NCBI GenBank assembly: GCA_013265495.1
Contig: MU057552.1
Span: 276,713-296,712, forward strand
Origin: Vicugna vicugna
Lineage: Eukaryota
Direction: 5' to 3'
Length of the DNA stretch: 20,000 nt
A program made the position numbers and the translations under genes. This document shows, one piece after another, positions 1-20,000 of this stretch. The notes beneath the pieces are model-generated. The model had not been told where the DNA came from, did no database searches, and was given only the letters and a program-made list of their open reading frames with translations. Within the stretch, counting starts at the first letter, position 1; each line of letters opens with the position of its first letter.

Positions 1-712
1 GTATTTCTCATAACACTCACTTTTTCCCCTGTTTTATATTTAATTCTGTAGCTTTTATCTTCCCCTCCAGGTTGTAGTCAGTTTGAGGACCAAACCCAAA
101 TCTAAATTACCTTAAAAGATCTGTCCATAAACTCATATTCTCATCTGTCTCACACTCATAAGCTCAATAAAAATTCTATCGATGACCAAAGGAAGGAATG
201 CTCTTTCAGCCTTTCCTCCAAGGCTCAGGAAGGACAGCTGCCAGCTCAGAATGGAGTGGACAAATAGAGAATAGAGCAGTGTCACAAAGACAGCCTTCTT
301 ACTCCTTTTTAGTGTAATTCAATCCATAGTCCTAATCAGTCTCTGTCAGGCACATCTCCATCTCATATAACACAGTTGTGCCATTTATTTTCATTTATAC
401 AAACTGATCAGATATTTTTCAAATGCAGAGTTTTTTATAGTCTTTATTTTATTCCTTTGGGAGGTTCCTGTAAAAATTTTTTTTTTAATGGGAATGTGAT
501 CTCAGCAATCCTGAGATAGAGGTGTTGCCTAATTGAATCAGAGTGTTGAGGATGATTGTGCAAAAAGACTCAGTTAAATATGGGGTGGGGATGAGAGTAG
601 GGATTAAATGAGGATAACAGACATTTTAAGTCCCCCGAATTCCTGAGTCTGGATTAATGTTATGTTTGTTCTGCAAGTCTCCTTGTTAGTTTTCAAAGGA
701 AGGCCACTCAAC

Positions 713-1279
713 TGTAGAAGAAAATGAGCAGGGCAGAAGACAGGTATACTGGCAGTTTACTAGCCATAAAACCCTCTTTAAGAGTAAAGCAAGACCACGG
801 TATTCCCTCCCCATCTTGAGGGTAATGATTTATGAGATGCGGATGCTCCTGGAGGCCCAGAATCCTTACTTAAACCTCTTAGTTTGATACAACTATAAAC
901 TGCCACATGGCCCTGCAGCCTTTCTAGGCATGAAGGGGCAAAGCCCACAAAGGGACCAACACGACCTCCCATGCAGGGTCATTGCCTTCCTACTTTTGTG
1001 CTTCTGTAAAATGGCGTGGTTCTAGGAAAATGAAACTTACTCCTAAAATTCCATTGGTTCCCAAAAGCTCACCCCTTAATGGTCCATTTCTAACACCTAA
1101 TTTGCATATGGTGCAAACTTAATTGAAATCTAAAACCCTATAAAAGCCTCTGTAAACCTACAGACAGGGCCCAGAGCTTGGAGTGTTAACTCCTCTGGGC
1201 CCATTGGCATAATAAACCTGAGTTCTCCAACACTCCAAGCATTGTTTGGTCTCTCAATGGGATTCAGGTTTCTGAAACA
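713..1279 (+). mobile_element. Solo endogenous-retrovirus LTR (ERV1-like, cetartiodactyl type)
   Basis: TG...CA termini with imperfect inverted ends (TGTAGAAGAAA / TTTCTGAAACA). Reverse CCAAT at 1053-1057, octamer ATTTGCAT at 1100-1107, TATAAAA at 1139-1145 and AATAAA at 1211-1216, in U3-R-U5 order. No clear TSD, so the left boundary is approximate. Confidence 0.75.
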
Positions 1280-1502
1280 AGCACACAGTGTAAGAAAAGA
1301 TCAAGAGATTTCTGTGTATGAGTTAAACTCTTTGATGCTCCACTGAGTCTTCCTTTAGCATCCAAAGCACATCTGTAAATAACAAGTTACTCAGGATATA
1401 CATGTGAGAAAGCGGAGGCCTGACACAAATACTGTACTTCCAAAGTCCCTTGCATGTGGACCTGGACAGTCGTAAGCCTCTCTCCCAACTCTTGAAAACA
1501 GA

Positions 1503-1520
1503 CCCCTGCTTTTATAGCCC
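1503..1520 (-). promoter_or_regulatory. Candidate TATA-box core promoter (GGGCTATAAAAGCAGGGG)
   Basis: Consensus TATAAAAG with G/C-rich flanks in a locally GC-richer patch that does not look like a repeat. Motif evidence only. Confidence 0.3.
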
Positions 1521-2424
1521 ATGAGAGGTGTGCAGCAGTGCCCTGCTGTCCACTCTCAGCAGCCCCCTTCCCAACTCCCAAGAGAAGGACAGGTAACTTT
1601 TAAAACATAAGCCTATCTGTTAACTTTCTTGAATAAATTTGCCTTGCCAAAAACTTTTAAAATTAGGTGAAAAGATATCAGTATGAACATTTTAAATTGC
1701 AAATATGTGACCAACTTAAAATAGGCAGTGTTCACTGCTTTCCAAGAAGAAATGAAATGGCATGTATTTTTTTAGACTGTTAGGTCTGCTAAACCTAAAT
1801 GTTAGGTTGAAGCACACAGAAGCAACCAAAATGCAGTATAATTAGTTAACAATTCCAATACCCTCCATGTGTTCAGGTTCCACCCCCTGAGACCCCAAAA
1901 TGTTCTTTGGTTTGTGAGTGCCAAGATGAATTTCTTTTGCTCCTGGCTTTCCTAGTCAATAGCTTCACCCTTGAAGGAATATGAAATGGCAGCCAACAAC
2001 ACAAGTAACTGGGTCTGTGTGATTTAAGAATATAAGCCATGACATATATGATGTTACTCTTAGTTCAGGTAGTGAAGGGGACACAGTTGTCAGTGAGTGT
2101 ACGGTTGAATTATGGCACTTACACATACTTACCCATCTACTACATGTTAGAATTAAATTTATGATTCTTTGAATCTTGTCCTGTTTTTATTCGTTTGGAA
2201 AGGTGTTCCAACATGTCCAGCCTAACATGAACATTCTTACTTTGAGAGTGATTTCATTTTCAATGATTTAGATTTGCTCTTAAGATTTGCTTTTTTAAGA
2301 CCATTCCCCTCCCCATTGCTATCACACTCTTCTGAATCCTCAGATGGAAAAATTGAGCATTAGTTAAAATGAAAACGGCCCTAGTCAATATAACTGGAAA
2401 AAGATATTATGTCCTCCAAGGTTT

Positions 2425-3735
2425 GTTTTTGTCTTTTAGAATTTATTTTTTAGAGCAGTGTTAGGCTTACAGCAAAATTGAGAGTAACTGTATAGTCTCC
2501 ATGAAAGGGGAACCCTCCTACACTGCTGGTGGGAATGCATTTTGGTGCAGCCACTATGGAAAACAGTGTGGAGATTCCTCAAAAGACTAGGAATAGACTT
2601 ACCATATGACCAAGGAATCCCACTCCTGGGCTTATATCCAGAAGGAACCTTACTTCAGAATGACACCTGCACCTCAATGTTCATAGGAGCACTATTTACA
2701 ATAGCCAATACATGGAAACAGCCTAAATGTCCATCAACAGATGACTGGTTAAAGAAGATGTGGTATATTTATACAATGGAATACTACTCAGCCATAAAAA
2801 CTGACAACATAATGCCATTTGCAGCAACAGGGATGCTCCTGGAGAATGTCATCCTAAATGAAGTAAGCCAGAAAGAGAAAGAAAAATACCATATGAGATC
2901 ACTCATATGTGGAAGCCAAAAAACAAAAACAGAAACAAAATATCAAAGCATAAATATAAAACATAAAGAGACTCATAGACATAGAATACAAACTTGTGGT
3001 TGCCAAGGTAGCAGAGGGTGGGAAGGGATAGACTGGGATTTCAAAATTATAGAATAGATAAACAAGATTATACTGTATAGCACAGGGAAATATACACAAG
3101 AGCTTGTGGTAGCTCACAGAGAAAATAATGTGACAATGAATATATATATGTTCAAGTATAACTGAAAAATTGTGCTCTACACTGGAATTTGACACATTTT
3201 AAAATGATTATAAACCAATAAAAAATGTTAAAAAAGTGCACAGTCTCCATATACCCCTGCCCCCAACTCATGTACACCCTTCCCCATTATCAGCATCCCC
3301 CACCAGAGAAGTACATTTGATACAATTGATGAACATACATTGATGCATCATTCTCATCCACAGACCATAAGTAGTTTACATTAGGGTTCATTTGGTGTTT
3401 TGTACATTCTATGATGCATCAACCATTATAGTATCATCAGAGTGTGATAATGTACCGTATTATCACTGACCTGAAAATCCTATGCTCCACCAAAATTCAC
3501 TATTCTCCACCTATACATGTCTCCTTCCCACCTTACCCTTGGCAACCACTCATATGTTTACTGTCTTCATAATTTGGCCTTTTCCAAAATGTCATATCAT
3601 TAAAATCAGTCTGCAGCCTTTTTGTATTGGCTTCTTACACTTAGCATTATGCATTTAAGTTCCCCCCATGACTTTTTATGGCTTGATAGCTTATTTCTTT
3701 TCAGTGTTGAATATTATTCCATTATCCGTCCAAGT
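2425..3735 (-). mobile_element. Old L1 3' end (L1MC1/L1MC2-like), interrupted by a younger L1 at 2503-3235
   Basis: ttttagagcagtgttaggcttacagcaaaattgag ... catcccccaccagag ... gtttacattagggttca ... ggcaaccact ... ggcttgatagcttatttc matches the recalled L1MC 3' UTR in antisense. The two halves are colinear across the insertion. Confidence 0.8.
2503..3235 (+). mobile_element. 5'-truncated camelid-type L1: ORF2 C-terminus, 3' UTR and short A tail
   Basis: ORF 2542-3057 encodes the L1 ORF2 C-terminus ([11 protein letters not shown]...WYIYTMEYYSAIK...SLICG). AATAAA at 3217-3222. TSD aactgtatagtctccat (2486-2502) / aagtgcacagtctccat (3234-3250), 14/17 identical. Confidence 0.95.
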
Positions 3736-3914
3736 TTTTTAGACTGTGTGGATATTTTTCTGCAGTGTCTTGAAATTAGTGATATTTTTGTTTTGTTTTC
3801 TGGGGTCGAAGGGTGGAAATATTTTATTATGTAGAAGATTCTTGCTTAAGCCAGTTTTTCAAATTAATAAACAGGGTTTTTTTTTTAATTTAAAAATTCT
3901 CTTGATGGTATGGT

Positions 3915-4032
3915 NNNNNNNNNNNNNNNNNNNNNNNNNNNNNNNNNNNNNNNNNNNNNNNNNNNNNNNNNNNNNNNNNNNNNNNNNNNNNNNNNNNNNN
4001 NNNNNNNNNNNNNNNNNNNNNNNNNNNNNNNN
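3915..4032. other. Assembly gap (118 N)
   Basis: Run of N. Confidence 1.
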
Positions 4033-4089
4033 TTTGTTTCTAATTTCCAGCATCCATCTAGCATACACTGATATCATCAGGGAAAATGT

Positions 4090-4158
4090 ACACTGAAGAT
4101 TGAACCCAGGACCTCATACATGCTAAGTATTCACTCTACCACTGAGCAACCCCCTCCT
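4090..4158 (-). mobile_element. tRNA-Ala-derived SINE (camelid Vic-1-like)
   Basis: Minus strand reads gggggttgctcagtggtagagtgaatacttagcatgtatgaggtcctgggttcaatcttcagtg, with A box (GCTCAGTGG) and B box (GGTTCAATC) but degenerate stems. Confidence 0.8.
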
Positions 4159-5158
4159 CCAGCAGCATGATTTTCATTGTCTTCTATACAGCATGTTCTT
4201 CTCTGCTTTCCTGACTTGGGGAGTACAGGATGCTCTGCAAACAATTCTGATCTGTGACCACTCCAAAGAAATTTGGGAGGTCCAATTATAGCATACAGTT
4301 TATTTAACTAGTTGTAGAATGCATTGTCATTTCTGTCATGTCTGCTTTCTCATTACTGCCTTTCCTTTTTTTGCTATTGCCCACTTGTATTTTATTTCCC
4401 ATCTATATTTTATAAATTTGCTGTATACATTTATTATGATTTAGTTGTGTTTTCCCCCCTCTGCTGTTTAAAGTAATGTCTTTGGCAGACATACCAACTT
4501 ATCTTTCCCTTTCTGGACTATTAACATTGATCTTAAATAAAATTATGCTTAACTCCAATCACTGGATCTGTCTGCTAAGTTCTTATCAGTGCTGTTCATT
4601 TAGAAACTGAACAAAGGTTAATAATAAACTCCCTGTTCTATGATTTCCCCTCATTTAGGATTCCACTCAATTGCAACACAATTTAAATTCACTTCTTCAA
4701 TGCTGTTGTGAATCTGTGTAAAGGAAATGAATAAAAATGAGTTGTCAGAGCTTCAACCTTGACCTTTCTTTTTGCCTTTTTGTGCTGTATGCTGTCTTTG
4801 ATATGGGCCACGTGACTTGGCTTGTCCCTTTCCAGACCGTGCATCTCATCTCCTGCTTCTCTGATTTCAGGTTTCCTTGTAATTCTTACTTATCTATTTC
4901 ATCCTGTGGCCATTTCTAAGGCTCTGTTCCACAGTGCCTACTCCTCAGTCAGCAGCATCTTTCAGAGACACAGCTTCTGTTTCCTTTCTCTTTCCAGATC
5001 CATGCAGGTGACAGATCTATCTCTGTCCACCTATGATGGAGACTACATTCTTTACTGTCCAGTAGCATATTCCCTTTGATTGTCTCTTCCGTATACAGAG
5101 TTGTGAGCATATTTGAACTTTCCTTCTTTCCTTCTGTCAAATTCTTGTCAGCAGTTTT

Positions 5159-5178
5159 ACACACACACACACACACAC
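5159..5178 (+). repeat. (AC)10 microsatellite
   Basis: Direct reading. Confidence 0.95.
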
Positions 5179-5239
5179 TCTCTTCCCCACCACCAAACTT
5201 CTGCATATTATAAGCAGGAGTTCTTCAGGCTTCTGTCCA

Positions 5240-5920
5240 ACAGTGTGGACTTTGCAGACTGGTGGGCCTGGGTTTGAACCCTACATGATCACTTTGGATG
5301 AGTTTCTGGATTAGTTAAAATTAGTTGCCAGTTACAGAGACTGCAAAGAACTGTGGCATAAACAAAGTGATGTTTGTTTCTCTTTCACATTAAAAAAAAG
5401 TTTCTAGAGAGACAATCCAGAACTGGTATTATGATTTCACAAATCTCCTGAGACTTAGGCTGGTTTCACCTTTTAGGTTCACTAAACATCAGACGAGGCC
5501 CTCAATCTCATGGTCCTAGATGGAGCTTTATCCATCACATGCAGTGTAGAAAGGAGGAAGGAAGGGAAGGAGATAGAGGAAGGCAAGAATCTATGGTCTC
5601 TCAAGGAAATTTCCCAGAGGCTGTCATACACTTCCTGTCACAACTCATTGGCCAGAATTTAGTATTATGACCTCACCTAGCTGGAACAGATACCGGGGAA
5701 TATTGTCCTTATTCCAGACAATACTCAGCTGAAATGTGGGTGGTTCACATCCTTAGAAAGAAAGGGGGAAAGGAGCATTGCAGTAGCCAAATACCGGTTA
5801 TTCTATACCTCTTTTTTCTTGACTATTATTACTCATCTCACAGGAGCCTTAGGATTATTATGAAAGCATCTAATACAGTATCTAGCATAAAACAAGCTTT
5901 CGGTTAATGTTAGTTAATAT
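5240..5920 (+). mobile_element. MIR SINE relic split by an MLT1 LTR (5' part about 5240-5310, 3' part about 5830-5920)
   Basis: ggactttgcagac...cctgggtttgaaccc...tgatcactttggatgagttt resembles the MIR 5' core. caggagccttaggattattatgaaagcatctaatacagtatctagcata...aatgttagtta resembles the MIR 3' end. Confidence 0.55.
5312..5800 (-). mobile_element. MaLR LTR (MLT1J/K/L-like)
   Basis: Motifs ggcataaacaaag...tttctctttcacat, ctcatggtcctagatgg and ctcattggccagaatttagtattatgacctcacctagctg are typical of old MLT1 LTRs. Confidence 0.7.
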
Positions 5921-6099
5921 CCCTCCTTATTCCTTTTTTTGTGAATTTTCTCATTTCCCTGCTACCCCATCATTGGCATCCAAATTGTATTTCAAATACT
6001 TGCCCCAGTTGATGGTACTAAGATGTAGTCTTGTACCTTTTCATGAGAGGGAGCAACAAACACATTATTATTCAATGTCAGCATTTATTTTTTAGCTTA

Positions 6100-6295
6100 A
6101 AGTGTGGCTAAGATTTAAGGCATAGCTCTTGGAATCAAATACACCTAGATGTGACTCCTGGCTCTGCCGCTTAGTCAGTGTCTTACCCCAGCCCCTTGCT
6201 CCCTCCATTTCCTCATCTGTGACCCAGGGGTAAGATTCAGACATGAGGATTAAATTAAAATAATAGAGAGAGAGTACCTGACAAAGTAAGTGGTA
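6100..6295 (+). mobile_element. MIR SINE
   Basis: ctcttggaatcaaatacacctag...tcctggctctgccgcttag...tttcctcatctgt...atgaggattaaattaaaataat matches the MIR core. Confidence 0.75.
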
Positions 6296-6629
6296 GTTTT
6301 TCTTATCTTTTTCAATTTGGCCTAATCTGGGTGAACCTTTTTAAAAATGAACTCTTATTTCATTAAAAAAAAAGTTTTAAAATTGGTCATCTCCATACAT
6401 ATCCAAATGAGTGTTGTTAAATTGTTAGTCAAACCTTTTGAAAATTGTCTCCAAAATCAGTTTAAACCCAAATAGCAGCATAGTCTTTCTTCTATATTTT
6501 TTTAAAGAAAAAAACAGCATAGCTGAGCCTTAAAGTTAGTTAGCCTTGATTTGAATGATTTTTGGCAGATCCACTCTTAGAAGCAGAAACAGTTCCACCA
6601 ATGAGTCTATTTCATAGTATTTTTCCCCC

Positions 6630-6950
6630 AGTGGCTAGTTGTTAAGCCCCTACTGTGTGCCAGAAGCTGTGCTAGTTTCTGGGGACATATTGGTAAGCAG
6701 AAATGCACATGATTCCTGCTTATGCTGCTGTGGAAGTTGCAGTTACTGAGGGAGACAGGTGAATCAATCATTGAAAATAAATGAAAAATTGCCATTATTA
6801 AAGTTGTTAGGAAGGAGATGTACAGGTGCTGTGAAAGTATGTGCAAACATCTTATGATCCGAGGTTGAATGGTGACTTTAGGAACAAAAATTGGCCAGTG
6901 AGTTGAAGTAAAGAGATGTTATGGGCATATGGTTTGAAATGAGCTCAGAC
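6630..6950 (-). mobile_element. L2 3' fragment
   Basis: aagcccctactgtgtgccagaagctgtgctagtttctggggaca...gggagacag matches the antisense L2 3' end. Confidence 0.7.
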
Positions 6951-8034
6951 ACAAGGTGAGCCTGCCCTCGGCATGGACCAGAACATGCCACAGTCTCCAG
7001 CACCACTCCAAAGTATGCATTTCATGATTTGGGGCCATCTTTACAATAAGTGACCGTGATATATAACTTCTCAATGTGATACTCTGAAAGGGGCTACATA
7101 ATTTAGGAATAATCTAATTATTTCATAATTTATTCATGCTATAATGATAAATATTAAATTCACATACTTTTTTTTGATACACTAAGCAGAGGCATCTGCG
7201 AAAATTGGCTGTAAAGTAGGATCTTTTCAGAGTGTCAGAGTGTTGATCTGCATTACCCGTAGTGAGAATTTGAATTTGAAGCCATTTGGCTGAATGGGGT
7301 GGCATAAGAAACACTGTTGGCAGAAGAATAGGTAGCCCACAAAGTAGCAGTGGAGGATGACCACAGGATGAGAGGTGTGAGCAGTGTGTTCCAGACAGCA
7401 GCAGGACTGTGCTTGGGATGGCCCATCTCAGAGCCAGCAGACAGCCCCAATGTCCCATCTCTCCAAGGCATTCCAGGTACACATAGACAAGCAGTGGGAT
7501 ACCATTTCTCCTTTTCCTGTCCAGCTGAGCTAATGGGGCATCCTTTGGGGGAAATGTGGCCTCTCTGGTCTCTTTTAGGGTTTTGGAAGTTGGCTGGGAG
7601 GCTCTGCTCCCATGTAACATGTTAGGGAATGACAGAGCCTCAGGGGCAGAGCTGCCTGCCATTGGACTGTAGGTGGTTTCTTGTTCTGAACTGATAAATT
7701 TAAGATGAATTTCATTAATCTAAAGATTTTTAAGTTCATCTCTCTAGGCAAACCTAAATGAGTTTTAGTTAAATGAGTTACCAAGATAGGCAACTGAGCA
7801 AGGACTTGTCTTCCAAAAGCATTTGTGAGTCATGATGCAGTTTCTAGAGGCATATTGTTGTGCATGCTGGGCAGGTTCCCAGCCCTCCCCAAGAGTATTT
7901 ATGCTATGTATTTACCATAAGGGGTCACAAGCCTTTCACTTTCACCTTCCCAGGAATGCCATTGGAACTAGGAATTTCCCCAGCTCTTCATTTGCTCTGT
8001 ATTTGGAATTCCTCCCTCAGGGTGCAGCAAACTT

Positions 8035-8320
8035 GTTTTGACCTCAGGGACTTCTCAATTGTTGTTCTCTGCCTAGAACATTCTTCCCCTAAGAATCTGA
8101 ATGACTGCTTCCTTCTCAATGGAAGGTCAGCTCCAGGGTGACCTCAGGGATACTTTCCCTAATATCTAGATAAAGTACCACTGCCTGTCACCATCATAGT
8201 CCTTCACACCTGGGTTCATTGCTTGCTGACTTGTTCATATTCTGTTCCCCCAACACAGACACAAGAATATAAGTTCTGTGAAAGCATGGTTCTTGTTTAT
8301 CTGTTCTTAAGCCTGGTAGA
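8035..8320 (+). mobile_element. L2 fragment
   Basis: ctcagggacttc...gttctctgcctagaacattcttccc...gaatataagttctgtgaaagcatgg...tttatctgttc resembles the L2 3' region. Confidence 0.65.
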
Positions 8321-8334
8321 GAATAAACTTCCCA

Positions 8335-8440
8335 ACCTGCTGCATGTGATAGTAGGCAAAATGTTTACCCCTTTGGACATAAATGGGGATAACATCACCT
8401 TTGCTTCCTGCTTCATAGAAAAAGTGAGGACCTGTAATTA
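8335..8440 (+). mobile_element. MIR fragment
   Basis: tgtgatagtaggcaaa...taaatggggataaca...cttcatagaaaaagtgagga. Confidence 0.5.
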
Positions 8441-8494
8441 GGGTGCTGAAGATACTTTTTCTCCCTGAAATTTGGGATTAATTTGTTTGATTCC

Positions 8495-8510
8495 ATATAT
8501 ATATATATAT
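8495..8510 (+). repeat. (AT)8 microsatellite
   Basis: Direct reading. Confidence 0.9.
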
Positions 8511-8679
8511 TGCAAATATCAATACCATTTACCCAATTACATGACCCAAAAATACTTAGAACACATTTTGTGCTTCTCTTTGCTTTGCTTCCCACTAAAC
8601 TACTCCTTAAGCAATAGTAATCAGTTTGTCCAGAGGCCATATCCTTAAGGTCCCTCCCTTCAGCACCCTTCCTTCACAG

Positions 8680-9390
8680 CCTCTTGATTGCCTTGAGTCT
8701 TTCCAGGACCACTGCTAATTGTCTTCCAACCAGTAGTTAAGTTTGTATTCTTTCCCCTCTTCCGCCTCCCAAATTTGTCATCCACACTGCAGGAAAATAA
8801 TTGTTGTGGAAGGCAAATTCCACACCAATACTGCTTAGTTTAATAATCATGTAATGACTTGCTTTGCCACAGGATCATGTCCAAATGCCTTGGAAAGCCA
8901 TGTAAGACAGTCTTCCTCTGTGTGCTTCTGCAACTCTCCAGCTTCACCTCTTCCCCTCTGTCATTTCTAAATCATCTGTGCACACAACATGGACCCAATG
9001 TGCACAGTCATGTGCCATGCACCAACCATCTCAAACTGTTTGCAGTGCACAGAGGAAGGTTTCCAGGTGGCTTCACTCCCCTCTATCAGTGGTGTTCACC
9101 TTGCCTTGTCAAACACCTGCCCATCTTTTAAGAGTCAGTTCAAATGTACCTATTCTTAAAGACCATTCTAAACCCTTGCCCACTGCCAACCAGTTTCAAG
9201 AGCTCCTCATTTCTTTCTCTGCACTGCCTTGAACCTTGTAGTACACCTATTATAATACCCATGCCAGAGATTATCTCTGCCTCCTCCTCAGTGCTCCTTC
9301 ATGGTCAAGTTATTTTATTCATCTCCTGGGCTTCCTGGGCCAGGCATTATACTTGGCATGTAAATCAATATCTGGAAAAGAATGAAGCAA
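8680..9390 (+). mobile_element. L2 fragment running to its 3' end
   Basis: tccacactgcagg...caggatcatgtccaaatgcctt...ttaagagtcagttcaaatgtacc...ttattcatctc...tcaatatctggaaaagaatgaa is a degenerate L2 3' portion with its tail. Confidence 0.65.
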
Positions 9391-9724
9391 CCAAACTCAG
9401 TGTACTTATTATCTAGTAGAGAGCTTCAATCAATAAAATAGTTTTGACTGATATTTGAAAAATTGAAAGATCTCCTTGAAAGTTAGAGGTAGGAAGAAGG
9501 GATATTGTATTTATGCTGTTAAAAGATATCAGTTGAATGGCCAAAATATTTTGTCAATGAGCTAGTGTTAAGTGAACAATTACTGTGTTCAGAGCTCTGG
9601 ATTTGGTCATTTGCAGGGGATGCTTGAAATAGCTTTTGGACATTTCTGAAATGATTCTGGCTTTATCATCTCACTGGGTCAAAATGTTAAATGGTCGTCA
9701 CAGGTTCTCAGCTTCCAGGCAGTT

Positions 9725-10115
9725 TAGAACAAAGTGCCTGAATGTTTTTTCATCCACTACCCTCTAAAAGGATTTTGAAACACTGTGTCCTTTCCTCATC
9801 CATTTAAAAAGATAATATCTAAAAATTTTATCTTGACTTTAAATCATTACAAAAGATGATGCTTCTGACTTTATAAATATTGATTTATGAAAACCACTCT
9901 TTTTAATGTACACAATGGAAGCTAAATTAAATACCAGAGTGATTTTGTATCTACTGTGTCATCCATATTAAAAAAAAAACCACATTATAAACAAGCTCTT
10001 CTTGAAAAGCCAATAATTTTACATAGTTGTTTCCCTTGTGGAACTCATTTCATTCCTCTTCTCCTATAAAACTTAATCCCCATATAACATTCTTATGTTT
10101 GATATATTTTATTGA
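9725..10115. mobile_element. Probable old hAT/Charlie-type DNA transposon fragment
   Basis: AT-rich segment beginning tttttcatccactaccctctaaaaggattttgaaacactgtgtcc resembles recalled Charlie-family subterminal sequence. TIRs not confirmed. Confidence 0.3.
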
Positions 10116-10124
10116 TTACAAGTG

Positions 10125-11707
10125 CATTCTTAGCTCACTCTCATCCATGTACACCCACCACTTTGCTCAGGATGCCTGCTGGACATTGGTTAAACATCAA
10201 TTTCACCTTTTCTGTCTCTTACTTCAAGAGACAGAAAAGGTCTTCACAAAATTGGGAAGGAGGAAAAAGAAAAGTAGAAAAGGAAATCAGTGCAGGATCT
10301 GACTTTTGGTGAAGGAGCCAAAAAGGGGAAAACACTCTTTTACTGGGGCACACACAGAGAGATAAGTTGGGATTGAAGGAGATTCAATGATGGTGAGAGA
10401 AGTGCACAGCATATGCTTGGCTGACAGAACTGAAAGAAACCAGCACAAAATATCCCTGAAATCAATCCCCAGACCTTGACTTGAGCTGCTGATGCTGAGC
10501 TAGGAAGGTCTGCTGAAGCTGAGGGAGAGGGCTGAGGCTGATGGCACAGACTGAGTCTCATGGGGTTGGAGTGTGCTGTTTTCTGCGATTGGTAGTGTCT
10601 ACAGAACAGAACTGCCTGGGACCTGAATTCAAAAAGCAAAATTGCTGATGAACATGGTGTGGATTACCTAGATATCTCATAGACATATTCACTATCTCTG
10701 CAGGTCCAGGGCCAAATTTGGCATTTTTGCAATAGAAGAGAAGCAGGGCTCTATCAGAACCATCATAGTTTTGGTCTGAAGGACCCAGGGGAAGTTCGGG
10801 TTGAAATCAGAAACCATGGCCAAAGAATCTGCACATTTCATAGGCACAACTGTGATTTTTATTTGGTTCAAGGAAGAGGGTGTGGATATGCTCTGTGGTT
10901 GTCTTGGTGGTCCCATGCCACAAGGAAAAGAGAGCCAATAGCAGAGATCTGGGTGCACAGAAGGGGAAGTTGAAGCCTTTCCATCAGCTTTTTCTACCAC
11001 ATGCAAATGTGACAATAGGGATGGCGCTGACCTGGTACTGCACTGAGGACCCAGCTGGGGGACTGAAGGATCATTAGAGCAGGCCCTAGTGCATGACATC
11101 TTTAGATTTGTTTCCACTGGTGTTTTGGTGTAGAATTTGGACATTCCCATGGCAATAGAAAGGACAAAGGAACTGTCATGAGTATGTATTGGAAATATTC
11201 CAACACCACATTCCACAGCCTGCACCCCAGAAATGGTTTGGAAGTCTTAATTCCAATAAAAGGAGGAGCCCTAGCAACTCTCCAATCTGTGATAAACACC
11301 TAATCAAAATGAGGCTCTGCTAAACAACAAAAGTAGATTGTGTTTACCACAACAATAACCACATCAGCAATCATAGAAATAACAGGCAATGCACTTACAA
11401 GTATGACATGGCATCACACCATACCAAAAACAGATCTCACAGCAATATCATGGAACTGTGCACAGCCAACATAGGAAATCTTCCACTTAAAAAAATCCCT
11501 TCAAGTCTAGAATAGATAACTGACAATCTTTAACCCATAAAAATAGAGAGATATAATAAAATGAAAAAGAAGAACCATTCCCAGACCCAACTTCCATCAC
11601 AATTGGAAACTGAACAAAAAATAAATTAAAAAAGGAAGCATGTGAACACCCTTATCTACAGATCAGACTGAAATAAGAATTAGATAATGACTACTTCTTA
11701 AAAAAAA
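10125..11707 (+). mobile_element. Decayed L1 5' end: about 1.4 kb of 5' UTR plus the start of ORF1
   Basis: Resembles laurasiatherian L1 5' UTR motifs (aaaggaaatcagtgcaggatctg; gggagagggctgaggctg...ggggttggagtgtg; ccttcaagtctagaatagataactgac...agagatataataaaATG). ATG at 11561 gives MKKKNHSQ, like an ORF1p N-terminus. CpG-depleted. Confidence 0.6.
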
Positions 11708-11909
11708 GTTTTGGTTTTCTAAAATGTATGAATTTTCAAAGCCACATTTTATATTCTCCACCACCTTTTTCTTGTCAATGAGCCTGAGTAAGGTGTTCAC
11801 TCAGTGACCAAGAAGATCTCAGGTGTTGTCAGCAGGACCTAAAGCAAGCCTCTTCCTACTTGCTTCATCAAAAGATAATCGACCTATAGTTCCTGCCACT
11901 GAGCAGAGA

Positions 11910-13087
11910 AAACAGGCAGTGAAAAGACATTCAACATTGTTAGTCATCAGAGAAATGCAAATTAAAACCACAGTGATATATTACCTCGTGTCTATCAGGA
12001 TGGCTATCATCAAAAAGACCACAAAAACACAAACATTTAACAACAATGTGGAGAAAAGGGAACCCATATATACTGTTGGTATATAGTTTATACAGAGACT
12101 AGTGTGTGAGAGCTGAGTCCTGGAGGCCTGTGATTTATCCAGGAGGTCAAGTTATTGCAGGCAGCATGTGCTGCTTGAAACCAGTTTTCAGCCCTGGCTG
12201 TCCACGGGTATCAGTCTCCCTAGGAGCTGAGTCCCCCAACATCACACACCCCCACTCAGAGATTCTGATACAATTGGCCCAGGCAACCAGATTTGAAAGC
12301 TTCCCACTTGATTCAATGTGTAGTCACATTGAGAGACACTGTGAGCAACTAGTTCACTCTGGGATAGTCAGTATAGTTCATACACCCAAACTAGGAACAG
12401 TAGGAACAATAGAAATGCAAACTATTACAACCACTATGGAAAGCAGGATGGTGGCTTCTCAAAAAACTAAAAATAGAACTAATATATGATCTAGCAATTC
12501 CACTTCTGGGTATTCATCCAAAGAAAATGAAAACATTAACCTAAAAAGATATATGCACCCCAATGTTCATGGTAGCCTTATTTACAATTGCCAAGATATG
12601 GAAGCAAACTAAGTGTCCGTCAACAGATGACTGGATAAAGAAGTTGTGTTATATATAAAATGGAATATTACTGAGCCATAAAAAATTGAAATGTTGCCAT
12701 CTGCAACAATATAGATGGACGTGGGGAGTATTATGCTGAGTGAAATGAGTCAGACAGAAAACACAAATACCGCAGAGTATCACTTATATATGAACTCTGA
12801 AGAAGAAAACTAGTGAACATAACAACAACAACAAAAAGCAGACTCACAGGTACAGAGAACAAACAAATGGGTATCCATGAGACAGGGAAGAGGGGAGGGC
12901 AAGACTGGTGTAGGGGATTAAGAGGTACAAACTACTACGTATAAAACAAATAAGCTACAAGGATATGTTGTACAGCACAGGGAATATAGCTGATATTTAT
13001 AATAACTATAAATGGAGTATAACCTATAAAAACTGCAACCTGAAACTTATATAATATTGTACATCAACCCTACCTCAATTAGAAAAA
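11910..13087 (+). mobile_element. L1 3' portion (L1MA9/artiodactyl-type ORF2 end and 3' UTR), interrupted at 12081-12410
   Basis: Encodes degenerate KRHSTLLVIREMQIKTT...VEKREPIYTVG and resumes at agaaatgcaaactattacaaccactatgg. Its 3' UTR reads ggggattaagaggtacaaactac...gtacagcacagggaatatagc...cctgaaact...ctcaatt, followed by A-rich sequence. Confidence 0.9.
12182..12341. mobile_element. MER5A/MER5A1-like hAT MITE (about 160 bp)
   Basis: Ends cagttttcagccctggctg ... cacattgagagacactg, with internal cagagattctgatacaattgg and aaagcttcccacttgattcaatgtg matching recalled MER5 consensus. Confidence 0.7.
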
Positions 13088-13579
13088 CATTGAAGACCAG
13101 TTTGCCCCATGTGACCCAGGTCCCTCCAGTTTTACCTCCTTTTCCTATCTGTAGGGTTCAGTGTCATCATCTGTTAAATAAGGTACTCAGGCTAGAAGGC
13201 CAGCTGTACTTCAAGAATCCCATAAATCTACTGAAAGCAAACTAAATGATCAAATGAGAAACCTCAACCACAGCATGAACAATCCTTACTGCTGGCAGAA
13301 GTTTCATCTCAACCATGATGAAATGAGGACAAAATAGTGCACACTTGTTCCTTGCTTTCATGGACAGGAAGACACAGCTAATGTTATGTGAGATTTAAGA
13401 AGTAGGGAGAACAAGACACATACTGCACTAAACTTAATACTCTCATATGCCTTTGCTTTCCCTTCCTTGCATATTTACTGGAGGTGAGATGTGTTTAATT
13501 AAGGTTATATACCAATAAAAGCCAAATTATAATTTGCTTTTACCCATTAAATTTGTCTATATAGAAAATGTTTTCCAAT

Positions 13580-13915
13580 AATAAAAATAACATTTATTAA
13601 CCATAAAATTTCAAATAATTTTAAAACACAAAGAGTAGAAAGTAAGAGTTATCCATCTCTTGCCCAGATATATTTTATTTCCTTTAAGGAGTTTAACACA
13701 TATCATTCAAAATCTTTTCTTATATATATACATAAAGTATATTTTAAATAAAATGAAATAATACTATGTGTAAATTTTACAACTTGCTTTTTCATTTGAC
13801 AATATATACTGTAGACATCTTTTCATTTGAATTTACATTGCTTTACCTCATTCTTTTTAAAGGATGAGTAGTATTCTACTGTCCAGATGAAATAAACTGT
13901 ATTAAGCCCTCCCTA
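13580..13915 (-). mobile_element. Ancient L1 3' fragment (L1ME-like)
   Basis: aatactatgtgtaaattttacaacttgctttttcatttgacaatatat...acatcttttcat...cctcattctttttaa...gtagtattctactgt matches the antisense L1ME 3' UTR pattern. Confidence 0.65.
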
Positions 13916-14591
13916 CTTAGCCTGGCCCTCTCCTTCCTAAGGTTCCAGTCCCTGTATCTAAGAAGGGAAGACATGGTCTGGGGGAAGAGAAGGTTGTGCA
14001 GACAGAGGTGAGCAGGCAGGGAAGCAGGGCCAGCTGACTGCCACTTTCTGCCCCTCCCCTCTGGCTTTCAGCAACACTTCCTTCATCCTACAGTTACATG
14101 AACTGCCTTTTTCTCCTTCCCTGCAATCAAAGAATTTTGGAGAGACATTACATGAGTATTTTATGATTGTTCATTTCAGATTCCTCCTTCTCTCTGACAA
14201 CAACATATCTGGCACTAATCTAAATACTCATGAAGCAAGACCAGCAAACCCACAGAAAGCAAGAGGGGAAGGATCCCCTTGATCTTTCAGTCAAGATGGA
14301 GGGTTAAAATTGTCCAATTTAAAAATACAGCTGGGCAGATAAGAATAAGAGATACTAAAATATTTAAATCAAATACTTCTGGTTAACTGAGTCATATTGC
14401 CAAGCATTTAAGTCATCCTCACTCCAAGAAAAAAAAAAAAATTTTATCAGTAATCTGGCCCTTAACAAGTCCTATAAAACAGAAGTCAAATAGGACTGGC
14501 TGCAGACTGATGGAAAGAGTCTATTATTCTCAGAATGCTGGGCTTTTAACTCCAGAATGAAATCCAAGCATGTTACCCAAGCAGCTTATAC

Positions 14592-14684
14592 CTTACACAG
14601 GAGATGGTGGACATCGATGGGACAGTTCTGTATTACTTTGTCAACAACATCTGAGATGGATTCCATAATATCTGGGTTGGCAAA
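14592..14684 (-). pseudogene. ACTR3B: ACTR3B-pseudogene exon 9 (93 nt): [31 protein letters not shown]
   Basis: Acceptor aaaattcag|TTT and donor TGTAAG|gtataa. Matches Arp3[32 protein letters not shown]. The frame is open but RRP has become HHL. Confidence 0.95.
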
Positions 14685-15556
14685 CTGAATTTTATACAGA
14701 TATAAAAGAAACATTACACATTTCTCTCAACAACTTTTTAAAAATGTAACTTTAAAAAATACAGAATTCACTATGTCTTTAAAACTGTCACATTGGAATG
14801 AATGTGTCAAATTAATCCAAGTGACCGTACATGGAGTGATGGTGACATGTCCCCTCAAGAGATGAAATGTGTGGGTTTAGAGAGGGAGAAAATCAAACAG
14901 TAACAAAGGCAGACCAGCACCGCGTTAGAATACACAGTGACTCACACCTTTTATGAGATTTTAAAAAGCAAGTGCTCAGTGTATGTGACGTGTAATGAAA
15001 AATATTGTGAGTAGGTAATGAGCATGTGATGTATAGACACTAATGTCATGAAAAAGTTAGCCAGGATATAAGAAAAAAACCTAGTCAGTGACTCACACTG
15101 TAAATCTGGGCTAGAAGACTGGGAAGGGGGAAGGGTGGTGGCTTCTAAGTGAAACAATCAATACGGTAACAATCATGTTATTGAGTAAAAAATCTTACAT
15201 TCAATTCCATAAGTGAAATAAGCTAAAGTATAAGTAATTCAATTATAAAATTCTGAAATATGCTTTAAGAATCATGGAAAGTGTTGCTCAAGGGAAGAAG
15301 TCACCATGCAGCTGTTCACTGGATTTTGTTGGTTTATGTCTATTTTAACTGAAGACTATCACAAGCGAATGAGTGCTGTGCTATCAGGTACAGTCAGACA
15401 TACATTGTGTGCCATTTCCCTGAACAAACAGTCATACACATTGAAGAACAGGCAGTGGTTTGTATTTACCTATTAAATGTAAACTGAATGAAGCAGAAAA
15501 TTATACCAAAATACAAATAAAATCCAATTTACTAAACCTTAAAATATTGCCTCTTA

Positions 15557-15582
15557 ATTACTGCTTTTGCAAAAGCAGTAAT
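15557..15582. repeat. Perfect 26-bp palindrome ATTACTGCTTTTG|CAAAAGCAGTAAT
   Basis: Checked base by base; two 13-bp arms with no spacer. Confidence 0.95.
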
Positions 15583-16117
15583 CATTCTTTGTGACTACTC
15601 ATTAAACTGATAATATCTCTAATTCTTCTTTCCGAGGCTGTCCTCAGACAGAAGCTTTAACTTGCAGCAGGGAACACAGCAGGATCAGCTGTCCTGGGTT
15701 AAAAGTTGGAATGAGTGATGGGAAGGTTACATGTACGCTATTGTACTCTTATACAGACGCAAATTCCAATCAGTCCTCGAGATTAACTAGTTTTCATATT
15801 AGTATGAGATGAATTTCAAATCCATTCTCTTCTATTGTTCTTAAAGCTTCTTCCTAACAGCTCTTGGTTAAATCAACCATTAACTGTTTAACAGATAGCC
15901 AGAGCCAAAGAGGAGCACGCTGAAACACCCAGTCTAATGGGTGGACCACGCAGGGGCCAGAGCAGCCACTGAGGCTGAAGCCTACACTCCCAAGATCCTC
16001 CCTGGAAGGTGGCCACCTCATTCGGGAGCCCCACGGGGAGCCACTCTTGCACACATAAGTTGGCAGCATTGCTCCACACACGTCATTCTCTGCACACTCA
16101 GAAAGCAAATGTCTTAC

Positions 16118-16291
16118 TTCTGGCTGAGAGAAAATTTCAAGGCCTGGGAACCTTTCCTAGCCAACATCGATAATGAACTTCTTCTGGCTGATGGCATTGT
16201 TCCCTGTGTGCTGTTTGATCCACTTCTGTGGATCCACGTCATACTTGGCAAACTCCTTGACTATATTGGGGCAAATGTGTCAGTAATTCTC
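16118..16291 (-). pseudogene. ACTR3B: ACTR3B-pseudogene exon 8 (174 nt): [56 protein letters not shown]
   Basis: Acceptor gtgtgtgtctgcag|GAG and donor CCAGAA|gtaaga. Matches Arp3[22 protein letters not shown]...DVGYERFLGPEIFFHPE. Stops TGA at 16280-16282 and TAG at 16157-16159. Confidence 0.96.
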
Positions 16292-19204
16292 CTGCAGACA
16301 CACACACAGAGATGTCACCAGCCATTAGCCACCACCTAGTCTGCCCTCTGGCAAACACCCAGTAACTCCAGCACCACAAGCCCCCAACATCAGTCTTGCC
16401 CATGGCCACAGCTCCAAGGGAAACTTACTGGGCTCAGTGATGTCTAACAGCTATGCTTTGGCCAAGTACTCTGCTTTCATTTCAGCTCTGCTGTTAGTCC
16501 CAGCCTCACTGTCACATGTTGCTCCCCACTATCTGAGATGATGTCTGATGATGCCTTCCAAGTCCCTCGTCTCCATCTCCTCTCTTCTTACTCCTTGTAT
16601 GCCCCCACGTGGCACCTGCCCAGGCACTCGCTGCCACCCACTGGGAGCAGCAGACCCTCATCACAGCCCAACCCAGATCTGAAGGCAGCAGATCTGGCCC
16701 TGTGCTCACCAAGGCCGATTGGCAGGTGGTTAACCTGCTGTGCGGTCTGACACAGCACACTCAGTGGCTCCACAACAGAGAGTTAGTGGGTGCCTAGTCA
16801 CGTGGGATGCACAAGTGAATAAAACACACACAGACCCCTTCCCATTGGCCCATACACTGGCTGAGAGTCAGAGTAACCAGTGATGGTGATAAATAAGTGG
16901 CACAGCACTTTTTAAGGTGCTGGGACCATGAACCAAAGAAAAGCCCGACTTTGGCAGGATGGAGCTGCCACACACTGGGGTATGAGAACCCACGCAGTGC
17001 CAGCCCCAGACTGTGCTGTACAAAGTGTTTCCTCAGCTGGTGATGCCTGACTTGGGGTCTCTGGGTTGATCATCTGTCCTTAGAGCTAACCTCACAAGAA
17101 CAGCAGTTGGCCCCTGGGTACCGGATTCTGAAAGTCAGCTTCCTGTGGGCCAGATGGGCTTTGTTCAATGCCTGCACTGTGTCAGGCCCAACGCTGGTGC
17201 TCAGGAGGACCTCTGAAGGCATTTTCATGATACTAAGTTCAAAATTTCTTAGAATCCCTGAAACGAAACCTAATACCAGCCTTGGTATACTCTGCACAAC
17301 TGTAAGACTGATGGGCCAGACTTGCTACACACCCCTGTGCTCACTGATAACTGAGTGAGTGGGTCAGTCCATACAACCTCAAATCTACCAGGCTGAGGGC
17401 AGAAACAGTAAGTTGTCCTAAGACAACAGGTCAATGTCTCGTAGTATCTCAGAGGCTTAACTGAAGGCAGGAAGTGCCTCCACAGAGTTGATGGTGTGCA
17501 GTGTGTCAGCCCCAAGACCTGGACCACCACTGCCCTCACCAACAGGACCCTTGTATCCACAGGCCCCCTCCTGCCCACAGGGGCAACAAGACACAGGGTA
17601 ACTCTGACCCATTCCCACAGAGAGAAGTGGGGCAAGAACTAACTGACAGCAGGGTTGGGACAGGTGACCTGCAGGGAACACAAGGAGCTCTTCCACTTCC
17701 AAACTTCATGGCTGAGTGATACATTGTCACTGCCCAAATGGGTCAGCCCTGGTTCAGGGTCAGAGATGGACACCAGAGAGCCAGTGAGGAAAGTAAAGCC
17801 CACCACGAGGACTAGGAGAGCAGCCTCTGTCACAGTCAGCACACTTAGGGCCCAACTCACCTGCATGGCCACCATGATGATCAGGGGGCAGAGGCTCTGA
17901 GACACATTGGTAACAGGAGTGGGGTGGTGAGGGAACTTGGGTCAAATATCCAAATTTACTTCCTTGAAGAAAGGCAATGAAGGGAATAGGGGAAGTTCTG
18001 GGAAATATTTTAATATAAAAAGAAAGTCTTATGCTACTTCTGTAAACCTTCCCCCAGAGGGAAAGGGTTGACTCCCATGGACTGCCCAGGACCACACACC
18101 CAAGCTCTGAGGTGCCCCAGCCCTGGAAACTGTAGTCCTGGGCACACCCAGCCACCCAGCCACCCTACTCACAGGAGCCCTGACCCACACCAGTGCACCC
18201 TGTCCTAAAAATACCTCTGTATCCACCAAGAGTGTCATGCAAAGTGTAGGAATCCCCCCAGACACTAGCTTTCCTTCAACCAGTCTGTTACTGGGTGCAA
18301 AGGTGGGAGGAAAGGGGGAGGCTAACCTCCCTTAAACTTCCCTGCAGCTCAGAAACTGTGTGTTCAAGGCCACATGTCAACTCCATGCTTAAATTCTTCT
18401 CCAAAAACAAAATCTTTGCTCTTTATATAATAATTATCCTTGTATTACTAAAAATATCTTCATTTTGACTAAAACAAAAACAAAAACAAAACAGTAATTT
18501 GTCCTGATTTTGCAAACTGAAAAGAAAGATGCTTTGAAAGGGATCTGTCAAGTTCTACCTACAGAGTGACACAAAGACTAAACTGATGGATCAGTCAGGT
18601 GGACATTTTAAATAAGGACCAATGAACCATTTTCCTCTGAATCTTACTGATTTAATTTTAGAGCTTCCTGTAACTCCTCCAGCATGGTAACGGAGTCTAG
18701 AAAACATAGGAGGACTCTGTTCAATGATTCACCCTAGAACAGCATCACTCTGACTGGTAATTCTCAGGGTACAGAACCACACATAGCAATAGATGGAAAT
18801 GAGTTTGAATTCTGGCTGACTGCACAGGATTCCTCACAGTCACTGCTGCTGCTGTCTGCTCCTTACTTGGGAAATGAAGCCTGGAGGGAGAGGTGCAAGA
18901 CACATTGACAAATTGAAGGTTCTGTCTAATCAGGCTCCAATTAAATGACATCGTATTACACAGGATGCTCAATACCAGTTATCAAGCTACTCTCATTTAC
19001 AGCTGGAACCTCCACAAGCATCCATGTTCAGAGAAGAGGCTAAGCTTTCAGCCCCTTAACTCAAGTGGTAAACAGATGGAGACCCACCTTCATGGGGAGG
19101 GGAGGGAAGGCACAGTGGAGCAGGGGTGGCAGCCACGAGGGGTAGTGTGCAAACAACCGTTTCTCTCTCACACCCAAACTGGCCAATTTCCCAACTGTTT
19201 TTAC

Positions 19205-19348
19205 CTTAATGGCCTTTGCAGACTCCAGTGGTTGCTCAGGAGGGATTCCCACCTCCCTCTCCCTTGGCAGCTGTTGAATGAAATACATAATATCTCTACC
19301 TGCAACAGGGATGTGTCTGATGCAGCTTCCTAGTACCTAACCTTCCAC
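19205..19348 (-). pseudogene. ACTR3B: ACTR3B-pseudogene exon 7 (144 nt): [47 protein letters not shown]
   Basis: Acceptor ctctctgtctccccag|GTG and donor ATTAAG|gtaaaa. Matches Arp3[52 protein letters not shown] at 19337-19339 replaces Tyr. Confidence 0.96.
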
Positions 19349-19700
19349 CTGGGGAGACAGAGAGGCAAAACACCATGTGAGTAACTCCAGGAGGGAAGCC
19401 CTCCCTGGACTCTAAGTTAGACTTCTTCCCCCACCTGCCCTGGCAATGCAAGCATTTACTGAATCCCTACTCTGTGCAAAGCTCAGGACTAGGGGAGGGA
19501 GGATAAAATGACCATGCATGCAATTCTGTTAGGAGAACCTGTGATGCTCTGTAAGCAACCAAAGTGGTCTTTCCATTAGGAATGTGAAGAGAAAACCACA
19601 GAAGGTAGTTAATTTCTAAAATACTGCTGTCTGTCCAAACAATGGGTCATATTATTTTGTTCCTCTAACAAAAAGGAAAAAGTTTTAACTATTAATTTTT

Positions 19701-19815
19701 AAACACTTTTATTGAGTTATAGGCATTTTACAATGTTGTGTCAAATTCCAGTGTAGAGCACAATTTTTCTATTATACATGAACATATATATATTCACTGT
19801 CACATTTTTTTTCTG
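19701..19815 (-). mobile_element. Very short (about 115 bp) 5'-truncated camelid L1 3' end with TSD
   Basis: The reverse complement closely matches 3116-3235 of the other L1 in this window. It is flanked by the perfect direct repeat tttaactattaatttttaaac (19684-19704 / 19816-19836), which contains a TTTT/AA endonuclease site. Confidence 0.92.
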
Positions 19816-20000
19816 TTTAACTATTAATTTTTAAACCAACTACAAATTGGCTTGCATTTAAAAGTCAACAACCTGGTTAGCATGCGGGATTTAGAGTGTG
19901 ACAACCTAGACTCAGATACTGGTTCCACATCTGTGGGCAGAGTAACCATGGCCATACCTGTTAACACATATGTTTCAGCCTTGGCACCTTCACCCATCAT

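Follow-up and report, generated by a model that had tools for sequence, protein, structure and literature searches.

Unprocessed pseudogenes that lie on segmental duplications are a well-known kind of sequence, and among the relatives of ACTR3B, the gene for the Arp2/3 subunit Arp3-beta, human ACTR3C and ACTR3BP are already catalogued. Here, we compare these relatives with a degenerate copy of ACTR3B that lies in a 20,000-nucleotide stretch of DNA from the camelid Vicugna vicugna (the whole stretch is hereafter called the window). Human ACTR3C directly adjoins LRRC61. One report places it in a region of chromosome 7 that also contains LRRC61, ZBED6CL, RARRES2, and REPIN1 (PMC4270463). The named database matches of the camelid copy include "actin-related protein 3C" from human, gray whale, and a dolphin. 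The ACTR3C models have open frames and are 92-98% identical to ACTR3B; the dolphin protein (P0010) corresponds to ACTR3B residues 35-317, with 277 of 283 residues identical, plus unrelated ends, while the human isoforms end at residue 317. ACTR3C of human and cetaceans is a partial, intron-retaining duplicate of ACTR3B with the same exon set as the camelid copies (residues 31-318). In contrast to the open ACTR3C, the camelid copies carry two to three stops and 22-31 changes per 137 residues, and the camelid ACTR3C-like form is multi-copy, unlike ACTR3C.

A second relative, human ACTR3BP6, is located on acrocentric short arms. It lies under a probe with signals that differ among great apes, within a great-ape duplication mosaic (PMC12940165). 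ACTR3BP6 resembles the camelid copies in being an ACTR3B-derived passenger of mosaic, lineage-specific segmental duplications; however, it is called a processed pseudogene there, while the camelid copies keep their introns. The human ACTR3BP amplification occurred in a different mammalian order and is an independent event. Among the titles and openings of abstracts listed in literature searches, we found no published account of camelid ACTR3B copies or of the evolution of ACTR3C.

Pseudo-exons, splice sites, and stops in the window

The window corresponds to C381:276713-296712 in a 2.03-Gb assembly of 12,405 contigs. As the Arp3-beta reference, we used P0028, a protein of 418 amino acids that represents a 609-member cluster named ACTR3B. 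A tblastn search with this protein detected three matches, from which the positions of the splice sites delimited three pseudo-exons (Table 1). We give a probability of about 0.9 to the explanation that they form the 3' portion of an ACTR3B pseudogene of the unprocessed (duplicated and intron-retaining) kind. By counting exon-sized matches, the 144-nt pseudo-exon is exon 7 of ACTR3B, a gene that we take to have 12 exons in total. The 174-nt pseudo-exon also matched solved Arp3 chains at 1.5e-19. All three acceptors consist of a pyrimidine-rich tract followed by AG, and all three donors are GT. The three pseudo-exons align without gaps to the exons of the animal's own ACTR3B on contig C1699 and are thus free of frameshifts. 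Compared with this parental sequence, TAT became TAG at codon 184 (window 19337-19339), TGT became TGA at codon 232 (16280-16282), and TAC became TAG at codon 273 (16157-16159). With stops counted, the pseudo-exons depart from P0028 at 28 of 137 residues and from the own ACTR3B at 30. The window itself holds residues 181-317 only, because C381 terminates at window position 20000, inside the copy and upstream of the first visible exon.

These results agree with an earlier note made from the letters of the window, which had listed exons of 144, 174, and 93 nt, an absence of frameshifts, six intact GT/AG sites, and about 29 of 137 residues differing from human ACTR3B. The three nonsense codons that it reported are likewise present in the assembly, and their recurrence on separately assembled contigs (see below) argues against sequencing error. 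The shares of its words found in sequencing runs are by themselves uninformative: 20 of 24 listed runs contained part of the stretch and none contained half of its words. Neither presence of this copy, nor species, nor expression can be deduced from the values of 0.41-0.46 in the best 14 DNA-type runs (from four organisms) and of 0.09-0.17 in the RNA-type runs.

Table 1. Features of the window and contigs matched by window 13300-20000 in the DNA search. Positions are those of the window; residues and codons are those of ACTR3B.
Feature	Position	Strand	Description
tblastn match of P0028	19354-19199	minus	residues 179-230; E 9e-20
tblastn match of P0028	16300-16118	minus	residues 226-286; E 6e-23
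tblastn match of P0028	14687-14592	minus	residues 286-317; E 5e-10
Pseudo-exon	19348-19205	minus	144 nt, residues 181-228; TAG at codon 184
Retained intron	19204-16292	minus	2913 nt; parent ACTR3B intron 2903 nt
Pseudo-exon	16291-16118	minus	174 nt, residues 229-286; TGA at codon 232, TAG at codon 273
Retained intron	16117-14685	minus	1433 nt; parent ACTR3B intron 1427 nt
Pseudo-exon	14684-14592	minus	93 nt, residues 287-317; stop-free; 7/31 residues changed vs P0028
ACTR3B-homologous block	13328-20000	minus	C1699:1599166-1605715; intron 6 to ~1.3 kb into intron 9
Second module	1553-10119		83-87% identity to C7737:91269-99775; unrelated to ACTR3B
L1-like 3' end	2503-3235		interrupts second module
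N run (assembly gap)	3915-4032		inside duplicated block
Copy on C9408	full query		94% identity
Copy on C1562	most of query; 12756-20000 aligned		95% identity
Copy on C9118	first 4.3 kb of query		94% identity
Copy on C2140	1 kb		95% identity; fragment, 4,303-bp contig
Copy on C10531	193 bp at window end		94% identity; fragment
ACTR3B on C1699			83% identity; parent locus

ACTR3B as the parent gene

The best named protein matches of the pseudo-exons are ACTR3B and ACTR3C. At the nucleotide level, the 174-nt pseudo-exon shares 153 of 174 positions with the own ACTR3B versus 115 of 174 with the own ACTR3, a gene found on C8191 whose exon translation equals solved bovine Arp3 over the stretch compared. 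The three exons together are identical to the own ACTR3B at 368 of 411 nt. The copy and its parent also have the same exon phases and introns of nearly equal size, and the introns align with about 83% raw identity. Because the introns are alignable and of parental length, the copy was made from genomic DNA and not from mRNA. A processed pseudogene (retrocopy) is ruled out by the presence of these introns, and the earlier description of a dead, intron-keeping ACTR3B copy that did not arise by retrotransposition is confirmed. In contrast to the own ACTR3B, which is open for residues 16-418, the window copy is cut short at both ends and broken by stops. Two further short matches, at 11581-11920 and 12095-12371, could be either an extension of the homologous block or repeats.

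Arp3-like sequence of another type was found at C907:61340-62532 and C10346:8387073-8388269, where continuous, intron-less matches with stops show 59-70% and 45-74% identity to ACTR3B, respectively. Either ACTR3 or ACTR3B probably gave rise to them as processed pseudogenes. These retrocopies are also dead members of the Arp3 family; however, they run continuously across exon boundaries, unlike the window copy.

A family of copies on a segmental duplication

To count the copies, we combined a DNA search with window 13300-20000 (Table 1) and a protein search of the whole genome with ACTR3B. The protein search detected stop-bearing Arp3B-like exons on C381, C1562, C9408, C9118, C6655, C3399, C8392, C10531, C8933, and C1111. 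Besides ACTR3B and ACTR3, the exon of residues 110-145 occurs on five contigs, that of residues 226-288 on four, and that of residues 31-76 on three. No copy matches ACTR3B beyond approximately residue 320 in this search, where the alignments only continue into the intron, and a search with ACTR3B residues 1-46 found the exon of residues 16-33 in ACTR3B and ACTR3 only. The copies hold the exons of residues 31-318 only, and thus the duplicated unit spans ACTR3B from intron 2 to intron 9. Several copies are short or end inside the unit, including those on C381, C2140 (4,303 bp), C8933 (927 bp), and C1562 (22,527 bp). By our own reading of the assembly, the true copy number is four to five, a figure that is uncertain.

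The similarity extends over the whole window, which recurs on C9408 at about 94% identity (window 1-20000) and on C9118 at about 96% (window 40-17638). The window shares at least 1 kb at 90% identity or more with C9408, C9118, and C1562, as is required of segmental duplications, and represents one unit of a segmental duplication, whose mosaic block measures 20 kb or more.

Some copies have features of their own. The intron between the first two pseudo-exons of C1562 has undergone local multiplication (C1562:17935-20000): three to four successive stretches, which overlap, each match window 18052-19243, and the spacing of the exons is increased from about 3.1 to 4.3 kb. Window 13000-20000 itself contains no tandem repeats. 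On C9118, the 174-nt pseudo-exon (C9118:418642-418812) carries two in-frame deletions of 15 and 3 nt. The protein search found no match to the 144-nt pseudo-exon on C9118, where the alignment with the window stops at 17638.

Shared stops, branching order, and estimated dates

The stop at codon 184 is present in all three copies that carry the exon (C381, C1562, and C9408), and that at codon 273 in all four copies (C381, C1562, C9408, and C9118). Since both stops are common to every copy read, the death of the sequence preceded its re-duplication. At codon 232, C381, C1562, and C9118 have TGA and C9408 has TGT (a stop in three of four copies). A maximum-likelihood tree of approximately 6.7 kb gave the order (ACTR3B,(C9408,(C381,(C1562,C9118)))), with 100/99 support for each of the two inner branches, and the distribution of stops matches this tree exactly. 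The stop at codon 232 is absent from C9408, which branches first, and probably arose after the C9408 split.

In this tree, 0.146 changes per site separate ACTR3B from the crown of the copies, which is about 0.029 deep. In noncoding sequence, Kimura two-parameter (K2P) distances are 0.164-0.167 between the copies and ACTR3B (0.165 for the window), 0.056-0.063 between C9408 and the other copies, and 0.032-0.039 among C381, C1562, and C9118. Neutral rates in mammals are 1.1-2.2e-9 per site per year. If these rates apply and gene conversion is ignored, the first duplication would date to roughly 37-75 million years (Myr) ago and the re-duplications to roughly 7-29 Myr ago.

Selective constraint

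Between the window and ACTR3B, the non-synonymous (dN) and synonymous (dS) distances are 0.092 and 0.166, giving a dN/dS of 0.55. Neutral change in one lineage and tight constraint in the other would give a ratio of about 0.5. Next, we compared a parsimony ancestor of the copies with ACTR3B and counted 21 non-synonymous and 10 synonymous changes (dN 0.069, dS 0.129). The midpoint-rooted stem on the side of the copies measures 0.055 in the noncoding-dominated tree. Thus, non-synonymous sites changed about as fast as introns, with a stem omega near 1. CpG decay accounts for 11 of the 43 exon differences, the number of CpG dinucleotides falling from 14 in ACTR3B to 3 in the window. The loss of constraint that had been read from the sequence is therefore upheld by the comparison with the intact paralog, which had been proposed as a check. 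The copy was probably dead on arrival and drifted neutrally, which fits a copy that from birth lacked two coding exons at the 5' end and three at the 3' end.

The intact ACTR3B locus on C1699

The exons encoding ACTR3B residues 32-418 lie at C1699:1584733-1615784 on the plus strand, are all open, and show 90-100% identity to the guinea-pig reference; the exon of residues 16-33 was found at about C1699:1572370-1572425, open and with AG/GT flanks. In the stretch compared, only 2 of 137 residues distinguish the own ACTR3B from that of guinea pig. About 87 kb away, on the strand opposite to ACTR3B, a single open frame of 270 codons contains a Rad51-family match (C1699:1485137-1485637), and the position and layout of this exon are as expected of XRCC2. 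Furthermore, C1699 has eight AIG1/GIMAP places at 13-107 kb, approximately 1.5 Mb from ACTR3B. The human order on 7q36 is GIMAP cluster, XRCC2, ACTR3B. The DPPIV_N domain, our marker for DPP6, gave no match on C1699; by the human map, DPP6 would presumably fall past the end of this contig, and the null result is uninformative. ATP_synt_H, the marker for ATP6V0E2, was found only on C8296 and C11790, in each case as one continuous match to nearly the whole model.

Thus, the synteny check proposed for the ACTR3B neighbourhood yields both a Rad51-family exon in the place of XRCC2 and the GIMAP cluster on C1699, and the protein search counts one open ACTR3B locus plus at least four dead copies. Of the two alternatives offered before, a segmental duplicate of ACTR3B and a loss of the orthologous gene, the former is right, with at least four copies at 94-96% identity over at least 20 kb. 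A functional ACTR3B and a functional ACTR3 are both present and open, and this camelid thus has an unaltered set of Arp2/3 isoforms.

Two observations concern the GIMAP genes of C1699. The AIG1 match at C1699:13049-13663 has an in-frame TAG and may be a GIMAP pseudogene. A GIMAP7-like open frame of 297 codons shows 99% identity to a protein of Vicugna pacos and 94% to one of Camelus bactrianus, values obtained from a database of cluster representatives only and for a family of genes with paralogues. The sequence thus comes from a camelid, with alpaca as the nearest of the named matches.

The presumed position of ACTR3C

The exon content of the camelid copy family is that of ACTR3C. Therefore, we examined the region in which the neighbours of human ACTR3C lie. 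An open frame of 1105 codons at about 510 kb of contig C6649 (509917-510336 examined) encodes ZBED6CL. It matches a Camelus ferus protein at 98% identity and has relatives annotated as ZBED6CL or LRRC61 isoform X1. GIMAP genes are located at 588-643 kb of the same 660,643-bp contig. C6649 and C1699 are probably neighbours, with the GIMAP cluster split between the end of the former and the start of the latter. We found no Arp3-like exon or DNA match on C6649 in either protein or DNA searches, the gaps of this contig being uninspected. Thus, the copies resemble an ACTR3C orthologue in their exon content, at the level of the copy family, and not in a position beside LRRC61, ZBED6CL, and RARRES2. 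As a further candidate marker of ACTR3C, we considered glutamine at residue 250, which is common to the window, human ACTR3C, and cetacean ACTR3C. It was rejected, as the parental codon is CGG following CCG and C9408 keeps R while C1562 carries W, a pattern of recurrent CpG decay.

The same contig carries a ZNF862-like open frame of 728 codons at 481.5-483.7 kb (481301-483700 examined), which has a Pfam hAT dimerisation domain; the name ZNF862 is a lead from a feature search. The two frames of the domesticated hAT-transposase type, ZBED6CL and the ZNF862-like one, are thus 26 kb apart and upstream of the GIMAP cluster.

Proposed history and alternative explanations

We propose that a DNA-level duplication copied the part of ACTR3B that begins in intron 2 and ends in intron 9 (the exons of residues 31-318). 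With two coding exons missing at the start and three at the end, the segment would never have been able to encode a full Arp3 subunit; it would have drifted neutrally from about its origin and gained the stops at codons 184 and 273. The dead copy would then have been joined to an unrelated piece, a relative of which survives on C7737, and the resulting block, 20 kb or more in length, would have been re-duplicated at least three times, giving rise to the copies on C9408, C381, C1562, and C9118. The third stop, at codon 232, would have been added after C9408 had branched off.

Several points weigh against parts of this account. Codons 1-15 of ACTR3B were not located, and "intact" refers to residues 16-418 only. 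The stops and the copy number are known from one assembly alone, which is fragmented and in which several copies lie at contig ends; some "copies" may be halves of each other, while others may be collapsed or missing. The stem omega is based on 21 + 10 changes only, and a short early phase of constraint is possible. Finally, the copy could possibly have a role at the transcript level.

Among the alternatives, the least credible, to the point of being practically dismissed, is that the window represents the true ACTR3B orthologue, which would have been inactivated in this lineage. The earlier note had raised this loss together with an altered neuronal Arp2/3 isoform composition, and both fall: the degenerate exons themselves are all that speaks for it, while ACTR3B is open and in its syntenic place on C1699, 2 of 137 residues away from guinea pig and accompanied by the XRCC2-placed exon and the GIMAP cluster, ACTR3 is intact as well, and the window copy is multi-copy and lacks the last three exons. 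The copies could also be assembly artefacts, either haplotypes that were left uncollapsed or contigs of a single locus that are full of errors, as might be suspected from the fragmented assembly, from several short contigs, and from C381 ending inside a copy. We regard this as highly improbable, because the copies are 3-6% apart over 4,000-6,300 aligned noncoding sites, form a clock-like and fully supported tree, and have private structural changes (the 15- and 3-nt deletions in C9118 and the multiplication in C1562). A divergence of 3-6% far exceeds the heterozygosity expected within a species. A continued use of the copy, be it as a non-coding RNA, a source of small RNAs, a decoy for regulators of ACTR3B, or a short peptide, would agree with the survival of six splice sites after long neutral drift and with human ACTR3C, a similar truncated copy that is annotated as protein-coding. 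Such a use nevertheless appears very unlikely: the first window exon has a stop at its fourth codon and two more follow, omega is near 1, no Rfam family was found in the window, and six splice dinucleotides would not be surprising survivors of about 9% divergence. With its stops and truncation, the copy has no open frame for an actin fold of about 418 amino acids, the hallmark of a functional Arp3, and most likely it would do nothing.

If the three exons belong to an unprocessed pseudogene, as we conclude, its origin may still be told in two ways. An independent duplication of ACTR3B in the camelid lineage, with an exon content that coincides with that of ACTR3C, seems to us slightly favoured. 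The presumed syntenic position of ACTR3C looks empty, the copies have evolved neutrally since their origin, and a K2P distance of 0.164, which corresponds to about 37-75 Myr at the above rates, is younger than the primate-artiodactyl split; moreover, introns 2 (about 12.3 kb) and 9 (about 9.6 kb) are the largest flanking introns, and chance breakpoints within them would not be very unlikely. However, the identical exon set in two other orders would have to be a coincidence, the dates depend on the rates assumed, with gene conversion ignored, and the comparison is limited to one camelid genome. Alternatively, the copies may descend from an ancient ACTR3C that died in camelids, moved, and was amplified, a scenario that we consider possible but doubtful. 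It would account for the shared exon content (residues 35-317 in dolphin, to 317 in human, and 31-318 in the camelid), and an ACTR3C that predated the primate-artiodactyl split would have been inherited by camelids. Yet, the ZBED6CL contig C6649 has no Arp3-like match, and no residue specific to cetacean ACTR3C is found in the camelid copies, where only the CpG-prone R250Q recurs. In addition, a stem omega near 1 fits poorly with a gene 98% conserved in dolphin, and the age estimate, if anything, falls after the split.

We tentatively raise the idea, rather unlikely on present evidence, that the intron 2-intron 9 segment of ACTR3B is a recurrent mammalian "core duplicon", seen as ACTR3C in human and cetaceans and, dead and at least 4-fold, on mosaic blocks in South American-type camelids; primate segmental duplications likewise carry pseudogenes derived from ACTR3B. 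If so, introns 2 and 9 would contain hot spots at which several orders acquired their duplications independently; or else an ancient ACTR3C would have left its slot and driven, or ridden on, camelid duplications, in which case ACTR3C would be dispensable in camelids. The question whether ACTR3C is one old gene or the product of recurrent duplication is testable. With the gene-loss reading refuted, the copies have little biological consequence; it is mildly interesting that the same ACTR3B exon set was copied in three mammalian orders. In practical terms, the copies could be miscalled as ACTR3B, ACTR3C, or "low-quality proteins" during annotation, and they mark a duplicated region that breaks the assembly, C381 ending inside a copy. 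For mosaic segmental duplication in a camelid, the family offers a compact case that can be dated.

Second module and remaining content of the window

The second module of the window has its relative on C7737, a 7.1-Mb contig without an Arp3 match. The C7737-like module and the ACTR3B piece recur together, and thus the unit that was re-duplicated was already a fusion of the two; each piece has diverged from its own relative to about the same extent. We found no recognisable coding content in the second module or in C7737:90-100 kb by Pfam (22 open reading frames, ORFs, for C7737). None of the nine long ORFs of the window gave a Pfam family at E <= 0.01, and neither did a search of 39 of the 64 ORFs of at least 95 amino acids from window-related loci detect a family, the lone sub-threshold match being DUF4153 at a chance-level 17.7 bits versus a cut-off of 27. 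Likewise, no Rfam family reached the gathering score in the window.

Finally, two repeats were observed. The module is interrupted by a repeat that, from its sequence, is presumably the 3' end of a LINE-1 ORF2, although no Pfam family was found in it. Its 189-codon open frame (2488-3057), together with the surrounding 733 bp, occurs at 91-93% identity on dozens of contigs, and at least 37 places were scored among 28,786 first-look candidates. A shorter repeat of about 120 bp at window ~19690-19815, probably a lineage-specific short interspersed element or the end of a repeat, is found at 88-97% identity on many contigs and accounts for about 37 of the 48 DNA-search matches.

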